A DNA stretch of 32,000 bases from Candidatus Saccharimonadota bacterium (GTDB lineage: Bacteria; Patescibacteriota; Saccharimonadia; Saccharimonadales; UBA4665). The stretch is from assembly GCA_963716945.1 (NCBI GenBank), contig OY970322.1:720001-752000 (forward strand), written 5' to 3'. The notes under the pieces are model-generated. The model was not told where the DNA came from, made no database searches, and saw only the letters and a program-made list of their open reading frames with translations. Numbering within the stretch: position 1 is the stretch's first letter; each line of letters starts with the position of its first letter. Shown here piece by piece: positions 3,952 to 12,848 of this stretch. The translations under genes and the position numbers were made by a program.

Positions 3952-4048
3952 TATAAATCATCTGGTAATATGCTTGTGCTAGCCAGCTTAAATGCCTATA
4001 CTTAGGAGCGTAAAACTAAAAAGCGGGGAGACCGCGCAAAAGGGGTTG

Positions 4049-5254
4049 ATGAAGATACTGATGCTTGGCTGGGAGCTGCCGCCTTATAACAGTGGCGGGC
4101 TAGGGGTAGCATGCTACCAGTTGTGCAAAGCCCTTTCCGTAAAAGGCGTCGACATCGAATTCATCCTGCCTTACCAGGCCGACCATGATATTGACTTTAT
4201 GACCGTTACCGCCGCCCACCCCCAGGACGTGGCCAGCGTCGTCCGGGCCGGTATCGCCTATGACAGTTACAAGTATATTTTAGAAGACGGCAGCGAGCAG
4301 TGGCTCAATGTCCACCAGCAACAACAGTTATATGAAGAGGCGGCCGCCAGGCTGGCCGAAAAGAAAGAGTTCGATATCGTCCACGCCCACGACTGGCTGA
4401 CTTTCCGGGCCGCCCTGCGTATCAGGGCGATGAGAAACTGCCCTATCGTACTGCACGTCCACTCCGTCGAGTCCGACCGGGCCGGCAGCCAGTACGGCAA
4501 CCCGGAGGTCCAGGAGATAGAGGCCATTGCCCTGCAGCTGGCCGACCAGATCGTCGCCGTCAGCCAGCACACCAAACGCGCCATTATGCGCGACTACGGC
4601 ATACCGGCTGACAAAATCAGGGTCATCCACAACAGCATTGACGTCACCAAGATAACGCCGCTCGATGACGTCAACTCGTACCGCTACCTCAGCCTGATGA
4701 AGAGCCTCGGCTACCACGTGGTAGTCAATGTCGGCCGACTGACCGTGCAAAAGGGCCTGCCTAACCTGTTGCGCGCCATGCAAAAAGTCATCGCCAAGGA
4801 GCCCAAGACACTGTTATTGCTGGTCGGCAGCGGCGAGCAGTATAACGAACTGATAAAGCTGTCTGCCAAACTCGGTATCGGGCCGAACGTGCTCTTCGCC
4901 GATTTCCAGCGCGGCAAGAGGTGGCGTGATGCTTTCGCGATTGGCGACCTGTTTGTCATGCCGTCGGTGTCCGAGCCTTTCGGCCTGACGCCGTTGGAAG
5001 CAATCAGCTACGGCACCCCGGCCTTAATCAGTAAGCAATCCGGCGTCAGCGAGGTCCTGAATAACTGTCTCAAGGTCGACTATTGGGACATAGACGAAAT
5101 GGCCAACAAGATTACCGGTGCCGTCCGGAGCGATGCTTTGCGCGACGAACTTTGGCGTAATGCCCACCGTGAGTATTTGCGCCTGTCATGGGACGATGCC
5201 GCCGACAAGGTCAGCCACCTTTACCACCAACAGCTAGCCGGAGTAGCAGCGTGA
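4049..5254 (+). CDS. Glycogen/starch-synthase-like glycosyltransferase (GT4/GT5, GT-B fold)
   Basis: N-terminus MKILMLGWELPPYNSGGLGVACYQLCKAL (the K-x-GGL type motif of glucan synthases) and C-terminal EPFGLTPLEA motif. Start ATG 4049 is preceded by AAAGGGG; the ORF-track start at 3992 is the alternative. Confidence 0.75.
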   Translation: MKILMLGWELPPYNSGGLGVACYQLCKALSVKGVDIEFILPYQADHDIDFMTVTAAHPQDVASVVRAGIAYDSYKYILEDGSEQWLNVHQQQQLYEEAAARLAEKKEFDIVHAHDWLTFRAALRIRAMRNCPIVLHVHSVESDRAGSQYGNPEVQEIEAIALQLADQIVAVSQHTKRAIMRDYGIPADKIRVIHNSIDVTKITPLDDVNSYRYLSLMKSLGYHVVVNVGRLTVQKGLPNLLRAMQKVIAKEPKTLLLLVGSGEQYNELIKLSAKLGIGPNVLFADFQRGKRWRDAFAIGDLFVMPSVSEPFGLTPLEAISYGTPALISKQSGVSEVLNNCLKVDYWDIDEMANKITGAVRSDALRDELWRNAHREYLRLSWDDAADKVSHLYHQQLAGVAA

Positions 5255-6459
5255 AAAAGGCCCTAGTCCTCTACCTGCACGTCCACCAGCCCTACCGTGT
5301 CCGGCACTACACGGTGTTCGACAGCGGCTTGAAGCATGATTATTTTGACGCGGGTTATGAGGACCAGACCAGCAACGAACGGATACTCAAAAAAGTAGCC
5401 GAAAAGTCTTACCTGCCGGCCAATGCCAGGCTCCTGCAGTTGCTGCAAGATAACCCCGACTTCAAACTCAGCCTGTCTATCACCGGCACGATTATTGAAC
5501 AGATGGAACGCTGGGCGCCTGAAACTCTGGAATCATTCAAGCGGCTGACCGATACCGGCCGCGTCGAAATACTGGCCGAAACATACCACCATAGCTTGGC
5601 TTTCTTCTATTCCAGAGAGGAATTTGAAATCCAGGTCGGCATGCACGCCCGCAAGGTCCAGGAAGTTTTCGGCCAGACGCCGCAGGTCTTCCGCAACACC
5701 GAGCTGGCGTATAACAATGACCTGGCCTACTGGGCCGAACAAGCCGGCTACAAAGGCGTCCTGGCCGAAGGCTGGGATCCCGTACTCGGCTGGCGCAGCC
5801 CTAACTATGTTTACCGGCCGGCTTATACCGACCGTATCCGTCTGCTGATGAAGAATTATAAGCTGAGCGATGACATCGCCTTCCGCTTCGGCGACCATGA
5901 CTGGTCGGAGTGGCCGCTGACCGCCGATAAGTTCTCGCACTGGCTGAGTTCCGACGATAAGGCCACGAATTTCAACTTGTTCATGGATTATGAGACCTTC
6001 GGCGAACACCAATGGGACGATTCGGGAATTTTCAATTTCTTGGACCACCTGCCCAGAGAGTGGCTCAAAACCGAAGGCCACACTTTCATGATGGTCAGCG
6101 AGACGATTGACAGCTTCGAGCCGGTCGACCAGGTCGACGTGCCTCACACCATCACGTGGGCCGACACCGAACGCGACTTGTCTGCGTGGCTCGGCAACCC
6201 CATGCAAACCTCGTCCATCGACGCTCTCTACGGCCTGAGCGACAAGATTATCGGTACCGGCGACTTCGCGCTTATCGAAGATTGGCGGCGGCTGCAGACA
6301 TCCGACCATTTCTACTATATGTGCACCAAGTGGTTTAACGACGGTGACATCCATGCTTATTTCAGTCCTTATGACACGCCTTACGAAGCTTATATGAACT
6401 TCATGAATGCTTACCGTGATATACAGTTCCGCTTAGGCGAGAAAGGCGTCCAATTATGA
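5251..6459 (+). CDS. Glycoside hydrolase family 57 (alpha-amylase / alpha-glucan-processing enzyme)
   Basis: N-terminal LVLYLHVHQPYRV (GH57 HQP motif), FRNTELAYN and MDYETFGEH regions. Preferred start GTG 5251 overlaps the upstream TGA (GTGA) and has GGAG 7 nt upstream. The ORF-track start at 5188 would overlap the GT gene by 67 nt. Confidence 0.8.
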   Translation: MKKALVLYLHVHQPYRVRHYTVFDSGLKHDYFDAGYEDQTSNERILKKVAEKSYLPANARLLQLLQDNPDFKLSLSITGTIIEQMERWAPETLESFKRLTDTGRVEILAETYHHSLAFFYSREEFEIQVGMHARKVQEVFGQTPQVFRNTELAYNNDLAYWAEQAGYKGVLAEGWDPVLGWRSPNYVYRPAYTDRIRLLMKNYKLSDDIAFRFGDHDWSEWPLTADKFSHWLSSDDKATNFNLFMDYETFGEHQWDDSGIFNFLDHLPREWLKTEGHTFMMVSETIDSFEPVDQVDVPHTITWADTERDLSAWLGNPMQTSSIDALYGLSDKIIGTGDFALIEDWRRLQTSDHFYYMCTKWFNDGDIHAYFSPYDTPYEAYMNFMNAYRDIQFRLGEKGVQL

Positions 6460-6475
6460 GCAAAGGGGGTGGGTT

Positions 6476-8407
6476 GTGGCTAGACCGGTAGTTTTGAGTA
6501 ACGGACAGGTGTTTGTCGGGCTTGACGAGCGCGGCCTGGTCCATGACTTTTATTATCCTTACGTCGGATTGGACAACCTGACTAACGCCCGCAGCAGCCA
6601 GCACAAGATCGGCGTCTGGGTAGACGGCCAATTCAGCTGGACCGACGACGGCTCCTGGGACATAACCGTTGACATGGAGCAGGACGCCTTGATCAGTAAC
6701 GTTCGGATGAAATCCCCCAAACTGGGCATCACCATAGACTTTTTGGACTTTATCGACATCGAATATAACGCCCTGGTGCGCTGCATGAAAGTTACCAACG
6801 AGCACGATAGCGAACGGGATATAAGAGTGTTCATGCACCAGGTTTTTCAGATCTCGCGGGCCGGCCGGGCCGACACGGCGCTGTTCGTGCCGGAAGATAA
6901 CTACATATTGGACTATAAGGGCCGCTGCTGCCTGCTGATAGCCGGCAAAACCAGCGCCGGCCAGACTTTCGACCAGTACGCCGTCGGTAACTATGAAGTC
7001 GAGGGCAAAGTCGGCACCTTCAAGGATGCCGAAGACGGCGAGTTATCGGACAACCCGGTCGAACACGGCGGAGTCGACAGCGTTTTGCGCTTCCGCAACG
7101 TTACCGGCGCCCACGAGTGGTTCGGCATCGATTATTGGGTAGTGGCCGCCAATAGCCAGTCTGACGCCCAAGTAGCCCACACTTACTTCAAGTATTACCC
7201 GGTTGAGCAGCGCATTGACAGCGTTCGCAAACACTGGCAGGAATGGCTGGCGCCGGCCGCCAAACAGCTTCAGAAAATTCCGCCCGACGCCCTGCCCCTG
7301 ACCACCAAAAGCCTCCTGATCATCAAGGCCCACTGCGATGACCGCGGCTCGGTACTGGCCAGCGGCGACTCCAATATCTTCAATTACGGACGCGATTATT
7401 ACTGCTACTGCTGGCCGCGCGACGCCGCGTACGCCATTTGGCCGCTGATCCGGCTGGGAATTTACGACGAAGCTAAGCACTTCTTCGAATTCGCCCGCGA
7501 TACCATGCACCGCGACGGTTACTTAATGCACAAATACCAGCCCGACCGCGCCATCGGCAGCACCTGGCACCCTTTGGTGCACAACCGGCACAAGGAGCTG
7601 GCCATCCAAGAAGACGAGACGGCCAGCGTGATTTACATGATCGGCGAATATTACAAGTACAGCCAGGACAAAACCCTGGTGATGAACTTCTACCACACCT
7701 TCATCAAGCCGTGCGCCACGTTTATCGCCAATTTCATTGATGACGCGACCGACCTGCCGCATGCCAGTTATGACCTTTGGGAAGAGAAGTTCCTGACCAG
7801 TACCTATACGACCTGCACGGTTATCGCCGGCCTGGAGGCCGCGGCCGAACTGGCAACCGTCGTCGAGCACCCCGATGACGCGGTAGTGTGGGAGAGGGCC
7901 GCCGAACGCATCAAAGGCGCTATGGACAAGCTCTACCACCCGGACGGCTATTACCGCAAGGGCTTTTTGCTGCAACCCGACGGCAGCCTTAGCTATGATG
8001 ACACGCTGGACATCTCAAGCTTCTTCGGGCCGTTCATGTTCGGCCAGCTGGAGCTGGACGACCCGAAACTGCTCAGCACGCTGCAGCATGTCGAGTCGCG
8101 TCTGTTAAACTCGTCTCCCATCGGCGGCGTCATTCGTTACGAACATGACAATTACTTCCTGAAGAAACACCAGTACAAGGGCAACCCCTGGATTGTCTGC
8201 ACGCTGTGGCTGGCCCAGTATTATAAGGCCGTCGGCCGGGTCGAGGATGCTACCAAACTGCTTGAGTGGGCGGCCGACCGCGGCTTCCCGAGCGGCGCCC
8301 TGAGCGAACAGTTTGACCCGGACACCGGTATCGCCCTCGGCGTAACGCCGTTGGTCTGGAGCCACGCCGAAACGGTCAACACGGTGCTGGACCTGAGCAA
8401 GAGTTAG
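6476..8407 (+). CDS. Glycoside hydrolase family 15 (glucoamylase/glucodextranase-like)
   Basis: 643 aa with an N-terminal beta-sandwich-sized region plus an (alpha/alpha)6-type region. Contains YCYCWPRDAAY (the W-x-RD motif of GH15), LWEE and PLVWSHAE. GTG start preceded by AAAGGGGGTGGG. Confidence 0.8.
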   Translation: MARPVVLSNGQVFVGLDERGLVHDFYYPYVGLDNLTNARSSQHKIGVWVDGQFSWTDDGSWDITVDMEQDALISNVRMKSPKLGITIDFLDFIDIEYNALVRCMKVTNEHDSERDIRVFMHQVFQISRAGRADTALFVPEDNYILDYKGRCCLLIAGKTSAGQTFDQYAVGNYEVEGKVGTFKDAEDGELSDNPVEHGGVDSVLRFRNVTGAHEWFGIDYWVVAANSQSDAQVAHTYFKYYPVEQRIDSVRKHWQEWLAPAAKQLQKIPPDALPLTTKSLLIIKAHCDDRGSVLASGDSNIFNYGRDYYCYCWPRDAAYAIWPLIRLGIYDEAKHFFEFARDTMHRDGYLMHKYQPDRAIGSTWHPLVHNRHKELAIQEDETASVIYMIGEYYKYSQDKTLVMNFYHTFIKPCATFIANFIDDATDLPHASYDLWEEKFLTSTYTTCTVIAGLEAAAELATVVEHPDDAVVWERAAERIKGAMDKLYHPDGYYRKGFLLQPDGSLSYDDTLDISSFFGPFMFGQLELDDPKLLSTLQHVESRLLNSSPIGGVIRYEHDNYFLKKHQYKGNPWIVCTLWLAQYYKAVGRVEDATKLLEWAADRGFPSGALSEQFDPDTGIALGVTPLVWSHAETVNTVLDLSKS

Positions 8408-8410
8408 GTC

Positions 8411-8611
8411 TCAGCGCTTGGGCGCTTCGTTGCGGCCGAGGTTTTTCTTGGTCTCGGTGAAGACTACGTGCCGGCGCAGCTTGGGGCTGTACTTCTTAAG
8501 GCTAAGCTTGTCGGGCGTGTTCATAGTGTTCTTGGTCGTGTAATACAGGCGCTCGCCGCTCTCTTCGGAAACGAGGCCGATAATCTTGCGTTTGTCGCCT
8601 TTTTTTGCCAT
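8411..8611 (-). CDS. rpmG: 50S ribosomal protein L33, Cys-less (zinc-independent) form with C-terminal extension
   Basis: [56 protein letters not shown] matches the L33 pattern (YxTxKN..NTP.+L.LKKY.P..R+H..+.E.K). Both CxxC pairs are replaced (SEES, SPKL). Confidence 0.85.
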
Positions 8612-8690
8612 AAACTTGTTTGCGCCTTTACTTAATAAAACTTAATTATATCTATCTTAACAGATGTGAAACGGGTTGTAAATATCCGTC

Positions 8691-8722
8691 ATACAAAAAT
8701 ACCGGCTGATCAAACCGGTATT
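8691..8722 (-). terminator. Weak candidate rho-independent terminator downstream of tRNA-Thr(TGT)
   Basis: Minus strand reads AATACCGG-TTTGATCAG-CCGGTATT followed by TTTGTAT. The 8-bp stem is 8698-8705 / 8715-8722, and only 4 of its pairs are GC. Confidence 0.35.
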
Positions 8723-8828
8723 AATGCTTTTCTTCTTGCAAGAAGGACAGTTTGATAAGTGTATTTCTTTTGGATTTACGCTTATCCTAGCGCTTATGGT
8801 AATCCAGTGAAAAATTTTTGTCAACCTT

Positions 8829-8904
8829 TGGAGCCGGCGGAGGGAGTCGAACCCACGACCCGCTGTTTACAAAACAGCCGCTCTGGCCACTGAGCTACGC
8901 CGGC
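8829..8904 (-). tRNA. tRNA-Thr (anticodon TGT), CCA encoded
   Basis: The reverse complement folds as GCCGGCG-TA-GCTC..GAGC-G-GCTGT-TTTGTAA-ACAGC-GGGTC-GTGGG-TTCGACT-CCCTC-CGCCGGC-T-CCA. There is one U:U mismatch in the T stem. 76 nt. Confidence 0.85.
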
Positions 8905-9172
8905 CTGAAAAACTATTGGCTAACAGTCATAAAGTGTAGCAAAAACAGGGATAATTTACTACCGGAAGCTCGTCCGCCCGAGGCCATAAAGCGGCCCGGA
9001 CCTAATGTCCCGCAACTAGAAACACCCCTGACGGGGTGCTTTGGTGTGCCCGAGAAATCTATCCTCGTGTTTGCACGTTATAACATTATTTTAATACGAG
9101 TAGGTTGACTGTAAGAATAATTACACTATTTTACTTGCCTGTTTCTCTCTGTTAAACTAAATGACGTTGTAT

Positions 9173-9247
9173 GCCATCTTAGCTCAGGGGTAGAGCACGT
9201 CCATGGTAAGGACGGGGTCCGGGGTTCAAATCCCCGAGATGGCTCCA
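9173..9247 (+). tRNA. tRNA-Thr (anticodon GGT), CCA encoded
   Basis: GCCATCT-TA-GCTC-AGGGGTA-GAGC-A-CGTCC-ATGGTAA-GGACG-GGGTC-CGGGG-TTCAAAT-CCCCG-AGATGGC-T-CCA. A perfect cloverleaf by hand folding. Confidence 0.9.
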
Positions 9248-9259
9248 AACACACCGCGT

Positions 9260-9344
9260 GCAGGGTTAGTGAAGCGGTCAAACACGGCTGACTGTAAATC
9301 AGCTCCCTTCGGGTTCGGGGGTTCGAATCCCTCACCCTGCACCA
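9260..9344 (+). tRNA. tRNA-Tyr (anticodon GTA), long variable arm, CCA encoded
   Basis: Acceptor GCAGGGT/ACCCTGC, anticodon arm GCTGA-CTGTAAA-TCAGC, long variable arm TCCCTTCGGGTTC (bacterial class II Tyr), T arm GGGGG-TTCGAAT-CCCTC, A, CCA. Confidence 0.9.
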
Positions 9345-9407: not shown

Positions 9408-9596
9408 ATGACCATGAATTGTCCATCATGCAACAAGCTCATGCGTAAAGTTCGTTGGGAAATTACCAATAACTTTAAAGTCGGAAAAGACTTCAAGGAA
9501 TATGATAAGTTTACGTATGAGTGCAAAGACGACGATGTTTGGGTGACTACGGAAACTCCAATCGTCGAAAAACCGGCGAGGGGCAGCGCAAAATAG
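9408..9596 (+). CDS. Hypothetical small protein with a single N-terminal CxxC knuckle (degenerate zinc-ribbon-like)
   Basis: 62-aa ORF MTMNCPSCNKLMRKV...YECKDDD. Visibly AT-richer than all neighbouring genes. TGGTATGAT (extended -10-like) sits directly upstream at 9399-9407. No family recognised. Confidence 0.4.
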   Translation: MTMNCPSCNKLMRKVRWEITNNFKVGKDFKEYDKFTYECKDDDVWVTTETPIVEKPARGSAK

Positions 9597-9667: not shown

Positions 9668-12109
9668 TTACGCGACGGCGACAGCGCCGTTAGCGTTACC
9701 GTTTCCATTGCCGTTACCATTCACGTGCGAAGGTTGTATAGAGGGGAATAGCCTGGCCGCCTGGCTGGCAGAATAGCCGGCGTAGCGCCCGAGGAGCTGC
9801 TCGACTTCCCGGCGAGCCTTGAGGGTTTGCGGTGACGGGGCGGAATCCAGCAGTTCAGCGACTCCCAGCTTGTGGCGGCCGGCTGTGAAACGCAATATTT
9901 TGCCGACCATTGAATGGCTGGCCGCGCCTGCCGGGCGCAAGGCGTCGATCTTTAGGATCAGGCGCGGGTCATCCGCTATCTGGCGTTTAACTTGGTCTAT
10001 ATGGTCGGAAGCCTCACGCTGCGAGCAGCCAAGCACCGAAGCGACTTTTTTAGGCGTAATCGGCAGCTCGTCGGCCAATATATAAGCCGTCATCTGGGCG
10101 GCCTCAAGTGCTTCGGGAGTTTGGGGCTGGCTTAGGTCTTCGGCCGCCACGCCGTAAGATTCGTAGATCTTCATTACTATGTCTTCGGCTTCCGGCGGTC
10201 TTGGAGCGTTATCCGGACTCATTAGATACTGGACTTCGGCTCGGAAGCGCGAATTGTTTTTCAGGAGCTTGGCAGCAGTACGAAGAAGCGGGCTTATGGT
10301 TCCGCGCTTACTGCCGATAGCTTTGCCGAGCTGATCCCGGCCAACGCAATCGTACTCGTTCATTATGGCAATAAAGGCCGCCCGGGCCCGAATGGCCTTA
10401 CGGGTACGGCCCCGCTTTAACTCAGCCTGATTAATTTCATAATAGCCCCTGACCGAACCCAGAGTCTCGGCCACCCGGTTTCTAGGCTTCTCGCCCCTGG
10501 CTAAAGCCTCGATCTCTTCGGCGAATACCCTCTTGCGGGCCGCCACGTCGGCAGCAGTTTTAGCCAAATCCAAAGCCGAACTGTGCTCTCGGTTATCAAA
10601 ACAAATGCCTACTTCGGCCATCGGCAAACGGGCCTGCTGACACCTCAGCATCGCTGCCCGCCGCGCCCGGCGGGTCATGAAGTCGCTTACGTCGCGGCCC
10701 ATTACCTTGATGGCCGGCCGGTTATAATAGGTGGCCGTATCCCTGATAATTTCATAAACGGCCTCTTTAATGTTCGGGTGGACCAGCCGTTCGTCAATAT
10801 CCGGCAAGTCGCCCTCGCCTACCAGCGCCACGGCCTTAGCCTCCCCTGGCTCACCGTCCTGGAAGACAAATGGTGCGGGCTTCTGGCTGAAAATTTGGCC
10901 GCGGACCCATGCCATCTGTTCGTTCAGCAAAGGACTTTCCAGGAGCTGCCGTTTAATTAAGAACCTGGCCCGCCGGACTACGCCTTCCCTGGCGAAACCA
11001 AAAAACTTGGCTATTTCCGGCGCGTAGGCATGGCCTCTTTCGGCTATTAGCGACATCGCCATACGACGGGCATACAGATCATCCGCTTCCAGTCCGGCCA
11101 TCACATCGGCCTTATCCTTGCCGGTAACTTGGGCTACCAGCTCGACGATCCGGTCATTAATTGAGAAGTCCACGGCCTCGGCGTTTTCGATGTAGTCAAT
11201 TTCGGCTGCCAGCATCGGATTGTCGGCCATTTCATCTTTGATGATGCCGGTCAATCGGGTCACCGTGGAACTGCTGATATCCAGCGCTTCTCTGGTTTCC
11301 TGAACCGATAGACCGAGCCTTTCGCGCAACAAGTAGGCATTGACGGCTTTAGGCCGGTCCAGACTAGTCGGCGACTTGCCTTCCGGTACGGTTTCGGGGT
11401 TGACGCCATAGAAGCTGTGAGTGTTCACCATGACGCGTCTGGCCTCCAGCTTAGGCGGAACCGGCAGTAAGCCGTCTTCCAGGGTTGCTATCTGGCGGTC
11501 AAAGACTTTATCGGCCTGCCTCAGTCGGGCAATCCGTCTTACCGCGTGGGGAACCTCGCTGTATCCGCCAAGGTTGGCCCGTTTAATAATAACCGACGGC
11601 CTGATAACGGTCTTTTCTGATAGCAGGTAGGCTATGACTTGCCGGGCTTCGCTGGGTTTGTGCTGGCTGCTGCTGGCAATTTGTTCGGCTGTCAGGTCAT
11701 CATAATGCATCGCCACCAGTTCGGGCCAAAACGAAACCGTCTCCAGGAGCGGTTCGCCGGTAGCTGCGGCCGTCAGCCCTTCCAGGTGCGCTTTGAATTT
11801 GGGGTCTTCGGCGGCCCTATCTCTGGTTCGGTCGAGACGGCGTTTTAGCATGTTGGGCTTACGCCCGAGCTGCTGGGCCAACTCTTGGTCATCCATCAGA
11901 CCGTTATCGGATATTAACGTCAGCATGGCATTTCTGGCATCCTGCAGTTGCGGGTCACGGGTATGGCTACCGTCTACCAACTCCCGGACCGGACGGTCGT
12001 AGTAGCAAGCGACGGCCAGGACCAAGCCGCCCAGCGTAACTTCACGGGGCATTGTTTCGGTTGCCGGGGCCAAAACCTCGGCAGCGGGCCGGTATTCCTG
12101 TTCACTCAT
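9668..12109 (-). CDS. Multi-HTH protein: about 8 tandem DnaA C-terminal (domain IV, Bac_DnaA_C-like) modules, no AAA+ domain, (Asn-Gly)n tail
   Basis: 813-aa ORF with a repeating unit of about 95 aa (approx. aa 26-112, 121-211, 222-308, 316-404, 446-536, 545-629, 641-724, 734-795). Units resemble DnaA domain IV. For example GYYEINQAELKRGRTRKAIRARAAFIAIM and FDNREHSSALDLAK compare with E. coli [29 protein letters not shown] and [15 protein letters not shown] (recalled from memory). No Walker motifs. Confidence 0.6.
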   Translation of the reverse strand: MSEQEYRPAAEVLAPATETMPREVTLGGLVLAVACYYDRPVRELVDGSHTRDPQLQDARNAMLTLISDNGLMDDQELAQQLGRKPNMLKRRLDRTRDRAAEDPKFKAHLEGLTAAATGEPLLETVSFWPELVAMHYDDLTAEQIASSSQHKPSEARQVIAYLLSEKTVIRPSVIIKRANLGGYSEVPHAVRRIARLRQADKVFDRQIATLEDGLLPVPPKLEARRVMVNTHSFYGVNPETVPEGKSPTSLDRPKAVNAYLLRERLGLSVQETREALDISSSTVTRLTGIIKDEMADNPMLAAEIDYIENAEAVDFSINDRIVELVAQVTGKDKADVMAGLEADDLYARRMAMSLIAERGHAYAPEIAKFFGFAREGVVRRARFLIKRQLLESPLLNEQMAWVRGQIFSQKPAPFVFQDGEPGEAKAVALVGEGDLPDIDERLVHPNIKEAVYEIIRDTATYYNRPAIKVMGRDVSDFMTRRARRAAMLRCQQARLPMAEVGICFDNREHSSALDLAKTAADVAARKRVFAEEIEALARGEKPRNRVAETLGSVRGYYEINQAELKRGRTRKAIRARAAFIAIMNEYDCVGRDQLGKAIGSKRGTISPLLRTAAKLLKNNSRFRAEVQYLMSPDNAPRPPEAEDIVMKIYESYGVAAEDLSQPQTPEALEAAQMTAYILADELPITPKKVASVLGCSQREASDHIDQVKRQIADDPRLILKIDALRPAGAASHSMVGKILRFTAGRHKLGVAELLDSAPSPQTLKARREVEQLLGRYAGYSASQAARLFPSIQPSHVNGNGNGNGNANGAVAVA
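9686..9721 (-). repeat. Imperfect AAY-GGN hexanucleotide coding repeat (NGNGNGNGNANG)
   Basis: Minus strand reads AAT GGT AAC GGC AAT GGA AAC GGT AAC GCT AAC GGC, 5 codons before the stop of the 813-aa ORF. Confidence 0.7.
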
Positions 12110-12194
12110 AATTAAACAGCCCGGAGGCCGTTATCTGTAATTATAACATAAAATGTCTTATATATACAACTTATTATGTCATATGTAAAAGATG

Positions 12195-12848
12195 TCAGAC
12201 GACGACGCGGCGCGGCCGGAGGATGCGCTTGCGGCGGCCGGCGGGTACCTTCAGCTTCTTGAGGCGGTCGGCGATCAGGTCGGCCTCGGCCTGCATGTCG
12301 TGGTTCATGTAGGCCTTGTAGAGCAAAGTGTAAGTCTCGCGGTTGGGCTCGAGCTCGGCGGCTTTTTCGAGTTCCTGGAACATTAGCTTGTCGTTGCCCA
12401 GCTTTTCCTGGACCTTGGCGTAGGCGACATGACGGGCAGCCAGGTTATCTTCAAGTTTGAGGGCCTGTTCGAAGGCGACAGCTGCCTTTTCGTAGTTCTC
12501 GGTCTCGTAATAGATAAGGCCGAGGTTGTGCAGGCTGGACGGCGTGGCTTCGATACTGGACGCGATTTCGAAGCAGTCGATGGCGTCACGGTATTCCTTC
12601 TGCTTGGCGTATAGGATGCCGAGACGGTTGTAGGCGGCGGCGTTCTTTTCGTCGATTTTGAGAATCGTTAAAAGGGCTTTTTCGGCGCGTAAGAAGCGGT
12701 TTTCGCGCATGCCCTGGTGGGCGATATCCCAAAGTTTGCCCAGCCGGTCGCCTACCTTGCGCGAAACGTTGGCGAACTCGTCATCACGGATCTGCCCGCT
12801 ATGGTAGGCCAGAACGACGAAAGCCGCGACTATTAATAGCTCATACAT
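12195..12848 (-). CDS. Membrane-anchored tetratricopeptide-repeat (TPR) protein
   Basis: N-terminal hydrophobic helix MYELLIVAAFVVLAY. Then 34-aa TPR-like units (AAYNRLGILYAKQKEYRDAIDCFEIASSIEA, SLHNLGLIYYETENYEKAAVAFEQALKLED, ...). Confidence 0.8.
   Translation of the reverse strand: MYELLIVAAFVVLAYHSGQIRDDEFANVSRKVGDRLGKLWDIAHQGMRENRFLRAEKALLTILKIDEKNAAAYNRLGILYAKQKEYRDAIDCFEIASSIEATPSSLHNLGLIYYETENYEKAAVAFEQALKLEDNLAARHVAYAKVQEKLGNDKLMFQELEKAAELEPNRETYTLLYKAYMNHDMQAEADLIADRLKKLKVPAGRRKRILRPRRVVV

Follow-up and report, generated by a model that had tools for sequence, protein, structure and literature searches.

The chromosome of a Candidatus Saccharimonadota bacterium encodes an 813-aa protein that, judging by sequence profiles and predicted fold, is built of eight tandem modules homologous to domain IV, the C-terminal DNA-binding domain of the replication initiator DnaA. 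The gene lies in a stretch of 32,000 nucleotides (contig OY970322.1, positions 720,001 to 752,000 of the forward strand), hereafter called the window. It occupies a complete open reading frame (ORF) at 9668..12109 on the minus strand, with an ATG start and 813 codons followed by a stop. Coordinates, strand and start match those of an initial annotation, made by a model from the letters of the window, and both peptides quoted there are present in the translation. The whole chain is accounted for by the eight modules (each ~90 aa) and a linker, in two blocks of four, with no further domain. To our knowledge, accounts of domain IV essentially treat it as one domain at the C-terminus, its spacing on DNA being set by ATP-dependent oligomerisation. 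The searchable literature (domain-architecture databases were not surveyed) contained no description of tandem or stand-alone DnaA domain IV proteins, in agreement with the initial annotation, which knew of no characterised protein with such an architecture. The protein appears to represent a rare architecture of a known domain, undescribed so far.

Repeat structure of the protein

The Pfam family Bac_DnaA_C (PF08299) matched the full protein in five stretches with 66.6 bits, above the gathering score of 31.5. When the units were isolated, units 2, 4, 5 and 6 matched with E-values of 0.0016-0.012 (12.6-18.9 bits for the matching single units) and units 3 and 7 with E-values of ~0.1; units 1 and 8 gave no match, and the gathering score was reached by no unit singly. 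Since the single units fell below the Pfam threshold, the count of eight stays undecided by Pfam alone.

A unit hidden Markov model (HMM) was built from the family members, each cut into its units. On the window protein it delineated 8 domains (aa 25-112, 123-211, 223-308, 316-403, 450-536, 545-629, 639-725 and 733-792), within a few residues of the boundaries that had been placed by eye. For a non-circular test of the repeat, we used HMMs with one unit class left out in turn, together with 400-1300 shuffled sequences per class. Units 1-7 of the window protein scored 18.8-57.8 bits with these leave-class-out HMMs and unit 8 scored 10.6 bits, the shuffle maxima being 7-11 bits. This supported the eight repeats initially proposed: on profile evidence the eight-module repeat is real, unit 8 alone being marginal in the window protein. 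This unit is truncated, with an NG-rich tail in place of the recognition-helix region.

The units do not repeat at the nucleotide level, as the initial annotation had stated. The sole DNA-level repeat inside the gene is a tandem 6/12-nt repeat at 9686-9721, which reads CCGTTA on the plus strand and codes for the NGNGNG tail (NGNGNGNGNANG). The NG runs are shorter or absent in relatives, which suggests that the tail arose recently by slippage.

Homology to DnaA domain IV and predicted fold

A single-sequence search of the PDB with the window protein returned nothing meaningful, and the unit profile was needed. This profile, built from 84 units of the family and no other sequences, matched solved DnaA domain IV chains from end to end. 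The best match was E. coli 1J1V with an E-value of 1.4e-14, profile positions 3-85 aligning with chain residues 2-84. Further matches were A. aeolicus 2HCB/1L8Q (3.3e-14) and M. tuberculosis 3PVP (7e-12), followed by 8BTG and 2Z4R. Among natural proteins, sigma-E region 4 was the next class (E 3e-4); a designed repeat chain, 8VD6, also scored 5e-10. When the unit classes were compared separately with the E. coli and A. aeolicus domain IV by hhalign, eight of the nine gave probabilities of 94-98%, and the unit 7 class was tied to the others via units 3, 6 and 1 (98-99%). Bac_DnaA_C matched all full-length family members (7/7), with a best E-value of 1.2e-64. The E. coli DnaA strings quoted in the initial annotation match the 1J1V chain.

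Models were generated with AlphaFold2 on family alignments of 12-14 sequences (14 for the full-length protein). The full-length model had a mean pLDDT of 82.5 and a pTM of 0.45, with an identical six-helix pattern in every unit and predicted disorder at residues 1-21, 420-432 (pLDDT <50) and 792-813. The second of these disordered segments falls in the linker between units 4 and 5, and the linker that had been noted at this position is thus real. Units 5-8 modelled alone reached a pLDDT of 90.3 and a pTM of 0.82. In Foldseek searches of the PDB with the predicted models, DnaA domain IV was the sole convincing match, with target TM-scores of 0.77-0.89 and a root mean square deviation (rmsd) of 1.4-2.5 Å (1J1V, TM 0.89, rmsd 1.5 Å over 92 columns; 3PVP, TM 0.77-0.83). 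The four-unit arrangement had no similar solved structure in the PDB (best query-normalised TM 0.25). Profile, hhalign and AlphaFold2 with Foldseek therefore agree with the initial proposal that each unit follows the layout of the DnaA C-terminal domain; by profile and predicted fold, each module is a member of the Bac_DnaA_C family.

The higher pTM of units 5-8 (0.82 vs 0.45 for the whole protein), together with the disordered mid-linker, suggests two blocks of four units, each rigid, with a flexible acidic linker between them. The junctions between units carry conserved motifs (GEPL, LPxIDExLVHP, GExRRD and DPxxxPRPP), which fit rigid blocks, and the prediction disfavours a beads-on-a-string layout.

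The protein itself is no DnaA, as far as its domain content can be read from profiles, the AAA+ domain and domain I being absent. Neither an AAA+ family, the ATPase of domain III with Walker A/B, nor DnaA domain I, which serves the interaction with DnaB and DiaA, was among the Pfam matches of the window protein, and the DnaA equivalog model TIGR00362 gave 60.1 bits against a cut-off of 343.9, with only its C-terminal model positions aligning. The initial annotation had likewise seen neither an initiator ATPase nor domain I. In the AlphaFold2 model, the N-terminus is predicted to consist of 21 disordered residues followed directly by unit 1.

DNA-contact residues and charge

In DnaA, the box is read by Arg399, a loop residue contacting the minor groove, and by helix 434-451 in the major groove. 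Box binding is impaired by the substitutions R399A and T435M (PMC5742627), and R407C abolishes double-stranded (ds) DNA binding (PMC5319796). We aligned all family units to E. coli domain IV and compared the residues at these positions. P423, D433, H434 and H439 reportedly are further box-contact positions in the 1J1V complex, and neither their equivalents nor that of T435 were conserved in any unit class, not even in unit 5 of the orthologues. The Arg399 equivalent was absent or variable in every unit class, its loop being shortened in units 2, 4, 6 and 7. Hence, all unit classes failed the box-reading residue test (Arg399, H434/T435). Only two proteins, that of the window and its 70% identical relative, kept an E-H-S, in both cases in unit 5 (R-E-H-S in the window protein vs R-D-H-T in DnaA). 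Among orthologues, the loop and the recognition helix were the least conserved segments of each unit, with a mean pairwise identity of 0.13-0.31, and helices 1, 3 and 6 the most conserved. DnaA boxes in the window were at chance level (5 found vs 4.1 expected). The lost box residues, the fast-evolving recognition helix and the lack of box enrichment make a canonical DnaA-box reader unlikely.

The R407 equivalent was the best-conserved position across unit classes. It is R or K in seven of the eight window units, and the counts by class were 7/8, 8/8, 4/4, 10/10, 11/11, 12/12, 12/13, 11/13 and 9/12. Units 6 (+12), 8 (+5) and 5 (+3) are net basic. The segment from the loop to helix 5 holds 9-12 K+R in units 1, 2, 4, 5 and 6, compared with 11 in E. 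coli. With +7, +5 and +9, the net charges of the DNA-facing segments in units 2, 4 and 6 are about as high as in E. coli domain IV or higher. With the R407 equivalent kept and basic units and DNA-facing segments present, DNA binding stays plausible.

Distribution and evolution of the family

The family is rare. An exhaustive phmmer search returned 17 proteins among 1.84 billion representatives, and word-index homologue searches with the protein and with the family alignment found the protein itself and the 70% relative only. Two pattern scans of GTDB species representatives, a set that is also without the window genome, gave no relative. A scan of metagenome contigs yielded two loci, one of them new and short. 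No family member was present in viral contigs (pattern scan) or in plasmid and phage records (tblastn), and the PADLOC and PHROGs models did not match the window protein. With nothing in these records or in the phage-family and defence-system libraries, the gene does not seem to be mobile.

The identical 813-aa protein was found on two assemblies, the 1.1-Mb contig and ERR11523672, and intact orthologues of 730-899 aa occur in at least six other samples. One relative (sample 3300001408) comes from Arctic tundra soil at Utqiagvik (PMC9387269). The orthologues carry 5-9 modules. Four of them (P0003, P0005, P0006 and P0007, at loci L006, L007, L008 and L014) carry an additional, ninth unit that follows unit 2 and precedes unit 3; it is rather DnaA-like, being among the stronger domain IV matches (hhalign 97.6%). 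P0010-P0012 begin at unit 3 and thus have six units, and P0013 is without units 3-5. Within the window protein, residues 216-370 are colinear with residues 636-788 (BLASTP E 8e-10), and in the hhalign profile comparison units 5, 7 and 8 pair best with units 1, 3 and 4. Taken together, these matches are consistent with an ancestral four-unit block that was later duplicated.

Between the window and the 70% relative, the ratio of nonsynonymous to synonymous substitution rates (dN/dS) was 0.07-0.27 in each of the eight units, with dS near saturation. The protein is under purifying selection, and the initial claim of an old, selected architecture agreed with these ratios. It changes ~2x as fast as HolB, RluA and TrpRS in the same comparison. 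The corresponding ratio of proportions (pN/pS) was <0.4 in every structural segment, with the same ranking as segment conservation. Diversifying selection on the recognition helix was considered and rejected, its pN/pS being 0.30 and no segment exceeding 0.4.

In the 70% relative (L001/L002/L003), seen in three independent samples, one in-frame TGA within unit 3 divides the gene into ORFs of 250 and 532 aa. This TGA (L002 9938-9940) corresponds to codon 251 of the window gene, at about window positions 11357-11359. Recoding of TGA was rejected because TGA terminates 6 of 14 genes there; the codon could be a recent nonsense mutation, or mark a split gene or read-through.

Features of the individual modules

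All features given here are on the minus strand, and the bit scores are those of the leave-class-out HMMs. In the first block, unit 1 (11774..12037, aa 25-112) scored 46.8 bits and aligned to DnaA domain IV with an hhalign probability of 96.8%. Unit 2 (11477..11743, aa 123-211), with a shortened basic-loop equivalent, scored 25.3 bits (hhalign 95.8%, Pfam E 0.003). Unit 3 (11186..11443, aa 223-308; 44.9 bits) is acidic, is paralogous to unit 7 and is the one interrupted by the TGA in the 70% relative. Unit 4 (10901..11164, aa 316-403; 26.8 bits, hhalign 97.0%) holds the most conserved stretch of the family, ARxMAMxLxAERGH, which is the helix 3 equivalent. The acidic linker between the four-unit blocks (10763..10900, aa 404-449) has its disordered part at aa 420-432 and closes with the conserved motif LPxIDExLVHP.

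In the second block, unit 5 (10502..10762, aa 450-536; 18.8 bits) contains the best Bac_DnaA_C stretch (E 0.0016). Unit 6 (10223..10477, aa 545-629; 44.6 bits) is the most basic module, aa 543-630 having a net charge of +12. Unit 7 (9935..10195, aa 639-725; 57.8 bits) is acidic (net charge -7) and has Ala at the R407-equivalent position. Unit 8 (9734..9913, aa 733-792) is truncated past the helix 4 equivalent, with 10.6 bits compared with up to 36.7 in orthologues (hhalign 94.8%). It is followed by the disordered NG-rich C-terminal tail (9671..9733, aa 793-813), which stems partly from the tandem repeat at 9686-9721.

Genomic context

The window is ordinary chromosome, with genes for shikimate and tryptophan biosynthesis, transketolase, transaldolase, glycogen enzymes, a histidine kinase and tRNAs; an Rfam scan of the window gave four tRNAs and nothing else. 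Beside the gene, tRNA-Tyr/tRNA-Thr/tRNA-Thr, rpmG, GH15, GH57 and GT4 are found in the window and at the relatives' loci L014 and L015, and tRNA-Tyr and tRNA-Thr genes are retained nearby in L002. The syntenic block spans window positions 3992-9344, L014 2665-8515 and L015 2935-8095, where the multi-module proteins are 31-35% identical. Its order is GT4 glycogen-synthase-like, GH57, GH15, rpmG (window 8411-8611, minus strand), tRNA-Thr(tgt), tRNA-Thr(ggt) and tRNA-Tyr, and in L015 the synteny reaches further, to tRNA-Trp, an AAA_33 kinase, YgjP and a histidine kinase. The conserved chromosomal position points to vertical inheritance inside one uncultured lineage. The interval that separates the gene from the tRNA cluster holds a 62-aa ORF (9408-9596, plus strand), which is convergent to the gene and has a CPSC...YEC zinc-ribbon-like pattern and no Pfam, PADLOC or PHROGs match.

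The gene is located downstream of trpS-rluA-holB-TPR on the same strand, and holB is two genes away both in the window and in the closest relative. The holB neighbourhood is common to these two only, the more distant loci being different. A replication link via holB was therefore dropped as evidence. The upstream neighbour is a 217-aa TPR protein (12195..12848, minus strand), hydrophobic at its N-terminus and very basic in its C-tail (KKLKVPAGRRKRILRPRRVVV); its counterparts are at L002 8443-9096 and L005 1-360. It adjoins the gene in three lineages, was not found at the loci of more distant relatives, and no other conserved partner gene was found at distant loci. In the 70% relative it is identical at 217 of 217 residues despite ~39% differing synonymous sites, and HolB, RluA and TrpRS are 86-88% identical in the same pair. 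In L005, the last 119 aa of the TPR protein are 93% identical, next to a multi-module protein that is 38% identical. By these sequence comparisons, the constraint on the TPR protein is unusually strong for its kind.

An AT-rich spacer of 85 nt (12110..12194, minus strand) precedes the gene. Its G+C content is ~17% (per 40 nt) in a 57% G+C genome, and it contains a block conserved in relatives (TTGTATATATAAGACATTTTATGTTATAAT), which ends in TGTTATAAT. L002 has a near-identical copy of the block (GTTGTATATATAAGACATTTTATGTTATAATTACAGATAAC), and in L005 it can still be recognised; ACAT/TGACAT words occur repeatedly within the block. Judging from its sequence, it probably serves the gene as a promoter of its own, the extended -10 element being of the TGnTATAAT type. 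A simple promoter scan did not call the spacer 12110-12194.

DISCUSSION

Our preferred explanation, for which the chances seem to us evenly balanced, is a multi-helix-turn-helix (HTH) protein that binds dsDNA in an architectural or regulatory role, using several modules and a relaxed or own specificity. It would be a chromosomal, vertically inherited and lineage-specific protein, with two predicted rigid four-module blocks joined by a flexible acidic linker. Several modules would contact dsDNA, the basic units 6, 8 and 5 being the best candidates; in units 2 and 4, the basic charge is confined to the DNA-facing segment. The contacts would be mainly to the backbone and electrostatic, complemented by a specificity of its own. 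In this way one polypeptide could engage a long DNA stretch or bridge two stretches, and its role may be that of a nucleoid-associated, architectural protein or of a regulator acting on long composite sites, without reading canonical DnaA boxes. The sequence analysis shows the repeat, its homology and predicted fold match to domain IV, the missing ATPase, purifying selection, rarity and the conserved locus; DNA binding, its mode and the cellular role are inferred.

Several observations weigh against this explanation. The basic loop and the recognition helix, by which DnaA canonically reads DNA, show the lowest conservation and the fastest evolution, and the conservation of the R407 equivalent could be structural. 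Acidic charge prevails in units 3 and 7, and with an isoelectric point (pI) of 8.06 the protein as a whole is no more than weakly basic. A repeat search near the gene revealed no array of DNA motifs, only short families at chance level. As for the models, the pTM values depend on alignments of 12-14 sequences, and the models were judged by their scores and Foldseek matches.

The main rival, which we regard as rather unlikely, holds that the HTH folds of the modules have degenerated and lost DNA binding. In that case the chain would form a rigid, alpha-helical scaffold that contacts other proteins, possibly the TPR neighbour or replication or transcription proteins. Such a scaffold would fit the loss of the canonical DNA-contact residues, the variability of loop and recognition helix, and the conservation being highest in the core helices 1, 3 and 6 and at the inter-unit junctions. 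The acidic units 3 and 7 and the pTM of 0.82, which points to a fixed superstructure, are also compatible with it, as is the ultra-conserved TPR protein adjoining the gene in three lineages. That neighbour, however, is missing at the loci of more distant relatives, and the retention of the R407 equivalent in nearly all modules and the strongly basic DNA-facing segments of units 2, 4 and 6 (+7, +5 and +9) speak against the scaffold. The initial annotation had instead suggested that the modules read arrays of DnaA-box-like sites and that the protein could be a DnaA competitor or sequestration factor. On such a view, oriC, datA-like or DARS-like clusters would be bound by a covalent mimic of the DNA-binding face of the DnaA oligomer, which competes with DnaA for its sites, sequesters them, or organises the origin without ATP. 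All modules are true homologues of domain IV by profile, window unit 5 has R-E-H-S for the R-D-H-T of DnaA, and the gene lies two genes from holB in the window and the closest relative; the 2 x 4 modules loosely recall, by analogy only, the left and right DnaA sub-complexes on oriC. Against this stand the lost or variable Arg399 equivalent, the unconserved equivalents of T435, H434, D433, P423 and H439, a recognition helix that is the fastest-evolving segment, the lack of DnaA-box enrichment in the window (5 boxes vs 4.1 expected) and a holB neighbourhood that is not kept in distant relatives. We therefore consider box reading improbable, and the competitor or sequestration role finds no support in the same residue, box-count and synteny evidence. 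More speculative, and to us decidedly improbable, is an ATP-independent, covalently linked domain IV "oligomer" whose rigid four-module blocks would clamp or bridge site arrays at or near the replication origin and thereby organise, license or block initiation; we found no evidence supporting origin binding of the multi-module protein.

Two further explanations concern the reality or the use of the repeat. That the protein acts like a sigma factor or another conventional transcription regulator, with only one or two HTH modules of importance and the others as filler, seems very unlikely to us. Sub-threshold matches to Sigma70_r4_2, HTH_23, HTH_20 and MarR occur in units 3 and 7, and Sigma70_r4_2 is found at E <= 0.001 in 7/7 full-length members. 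These matches span only the HTH core of 25-30 residues, and they stay below the gathering scores in the window protein (Sigma70_r4_2, 24.0 bits against a threshold of 25.7 over 27 residues; TIGR02937, 18.2 against 42.9). The domain matched over its full length is DnaA domain IV, with an E-value ten orders of magnitude better. Moreover, the Pfam and NCBIfam scans of the window protein found no sigma region 2, and purifying selection acts on all eight units. An assembly chimera or a functionless, decaying gene is suggested by the in-frame TGA within unit 3 of the closest relative, present in three samples. This explanation is barely credible and largely refuted by the same 813-aa protein on two assemblies, the intact 730-899-aa orthologues in at least six other samples, a dN/dS well below 1 throughout and the absence of a nucleotide repeat able to cause misassembly.

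DnaA domain IV is among the best-studied bacterial DNA-binding domains. Its multiplication 5-9 times, with the ATPase dropped and the copies in predicted rigid blocks, suggests that it can be re-used as a tandem-repeat module for DNA binding or as a scaffold. If the multi-module protein binds DNA, it would provide a natural array of modules, in which specificity could be taken apart one unit at a time, and it may mark a lineage-specific way of organising the chromosome or the origin. Were the origin-clamp idea true, it would represent a new way to build an origin-recognition surface, with a target code readable module by module. Given that the family is tiny and consists of metagenome-derived sequences only, it carries limited weight for biology in general until a function is demonstrated.

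The closest known system is DnaA itself. Each module is, by profile, a full-length homologue of domain IV (PF08299; 1J1V, 3PVP/3PVV, 2HCB, 2Z4R, 8BTG), and modules and domain IV share a layout of helix 1 with a terminal aromatic pair, a short helix, a loop, a long "ARxxA" helix, the HTH and a trailing helix, as well as the conserved R407 equivalent. In DnaA, however, domain IV is single and C-terminal to an AAA+ ATPase, whereas here 5-9 copies occur without the ATPase; the signature helix and Arg399 are highly conserved in DnaA, and in the modules they are not conserved and evolve fastest. As in the DnaA oligomers on oriC (reviewed in PMC5742627), several domain IV units would be held in a fixed geometry, and by analogy the two blocks could address two DNA segments. 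The geometry of those oligomers comes from ATP-dependent AAA+ oligomerisation, while here it would come from covalent linkage and unit packing (pTM 0.82, predicted). Like Hda/HdaA and truncated DnaA paralogues, the multi-module protein derives from the DnaA domain set and uses part of the initiator. Hda keeps the AAA+ domain and is without domain IV, and the multi-module protein is its converse, with domain IV only, multiplied. Myb repeats, TALE/BurrH repeats, mTERF and multi-HTH proteins such as sigma factors also combine several small helical DNA-binding modules in one chain, but they share no homology with the modules described here and differ from them in repeat fold and size.

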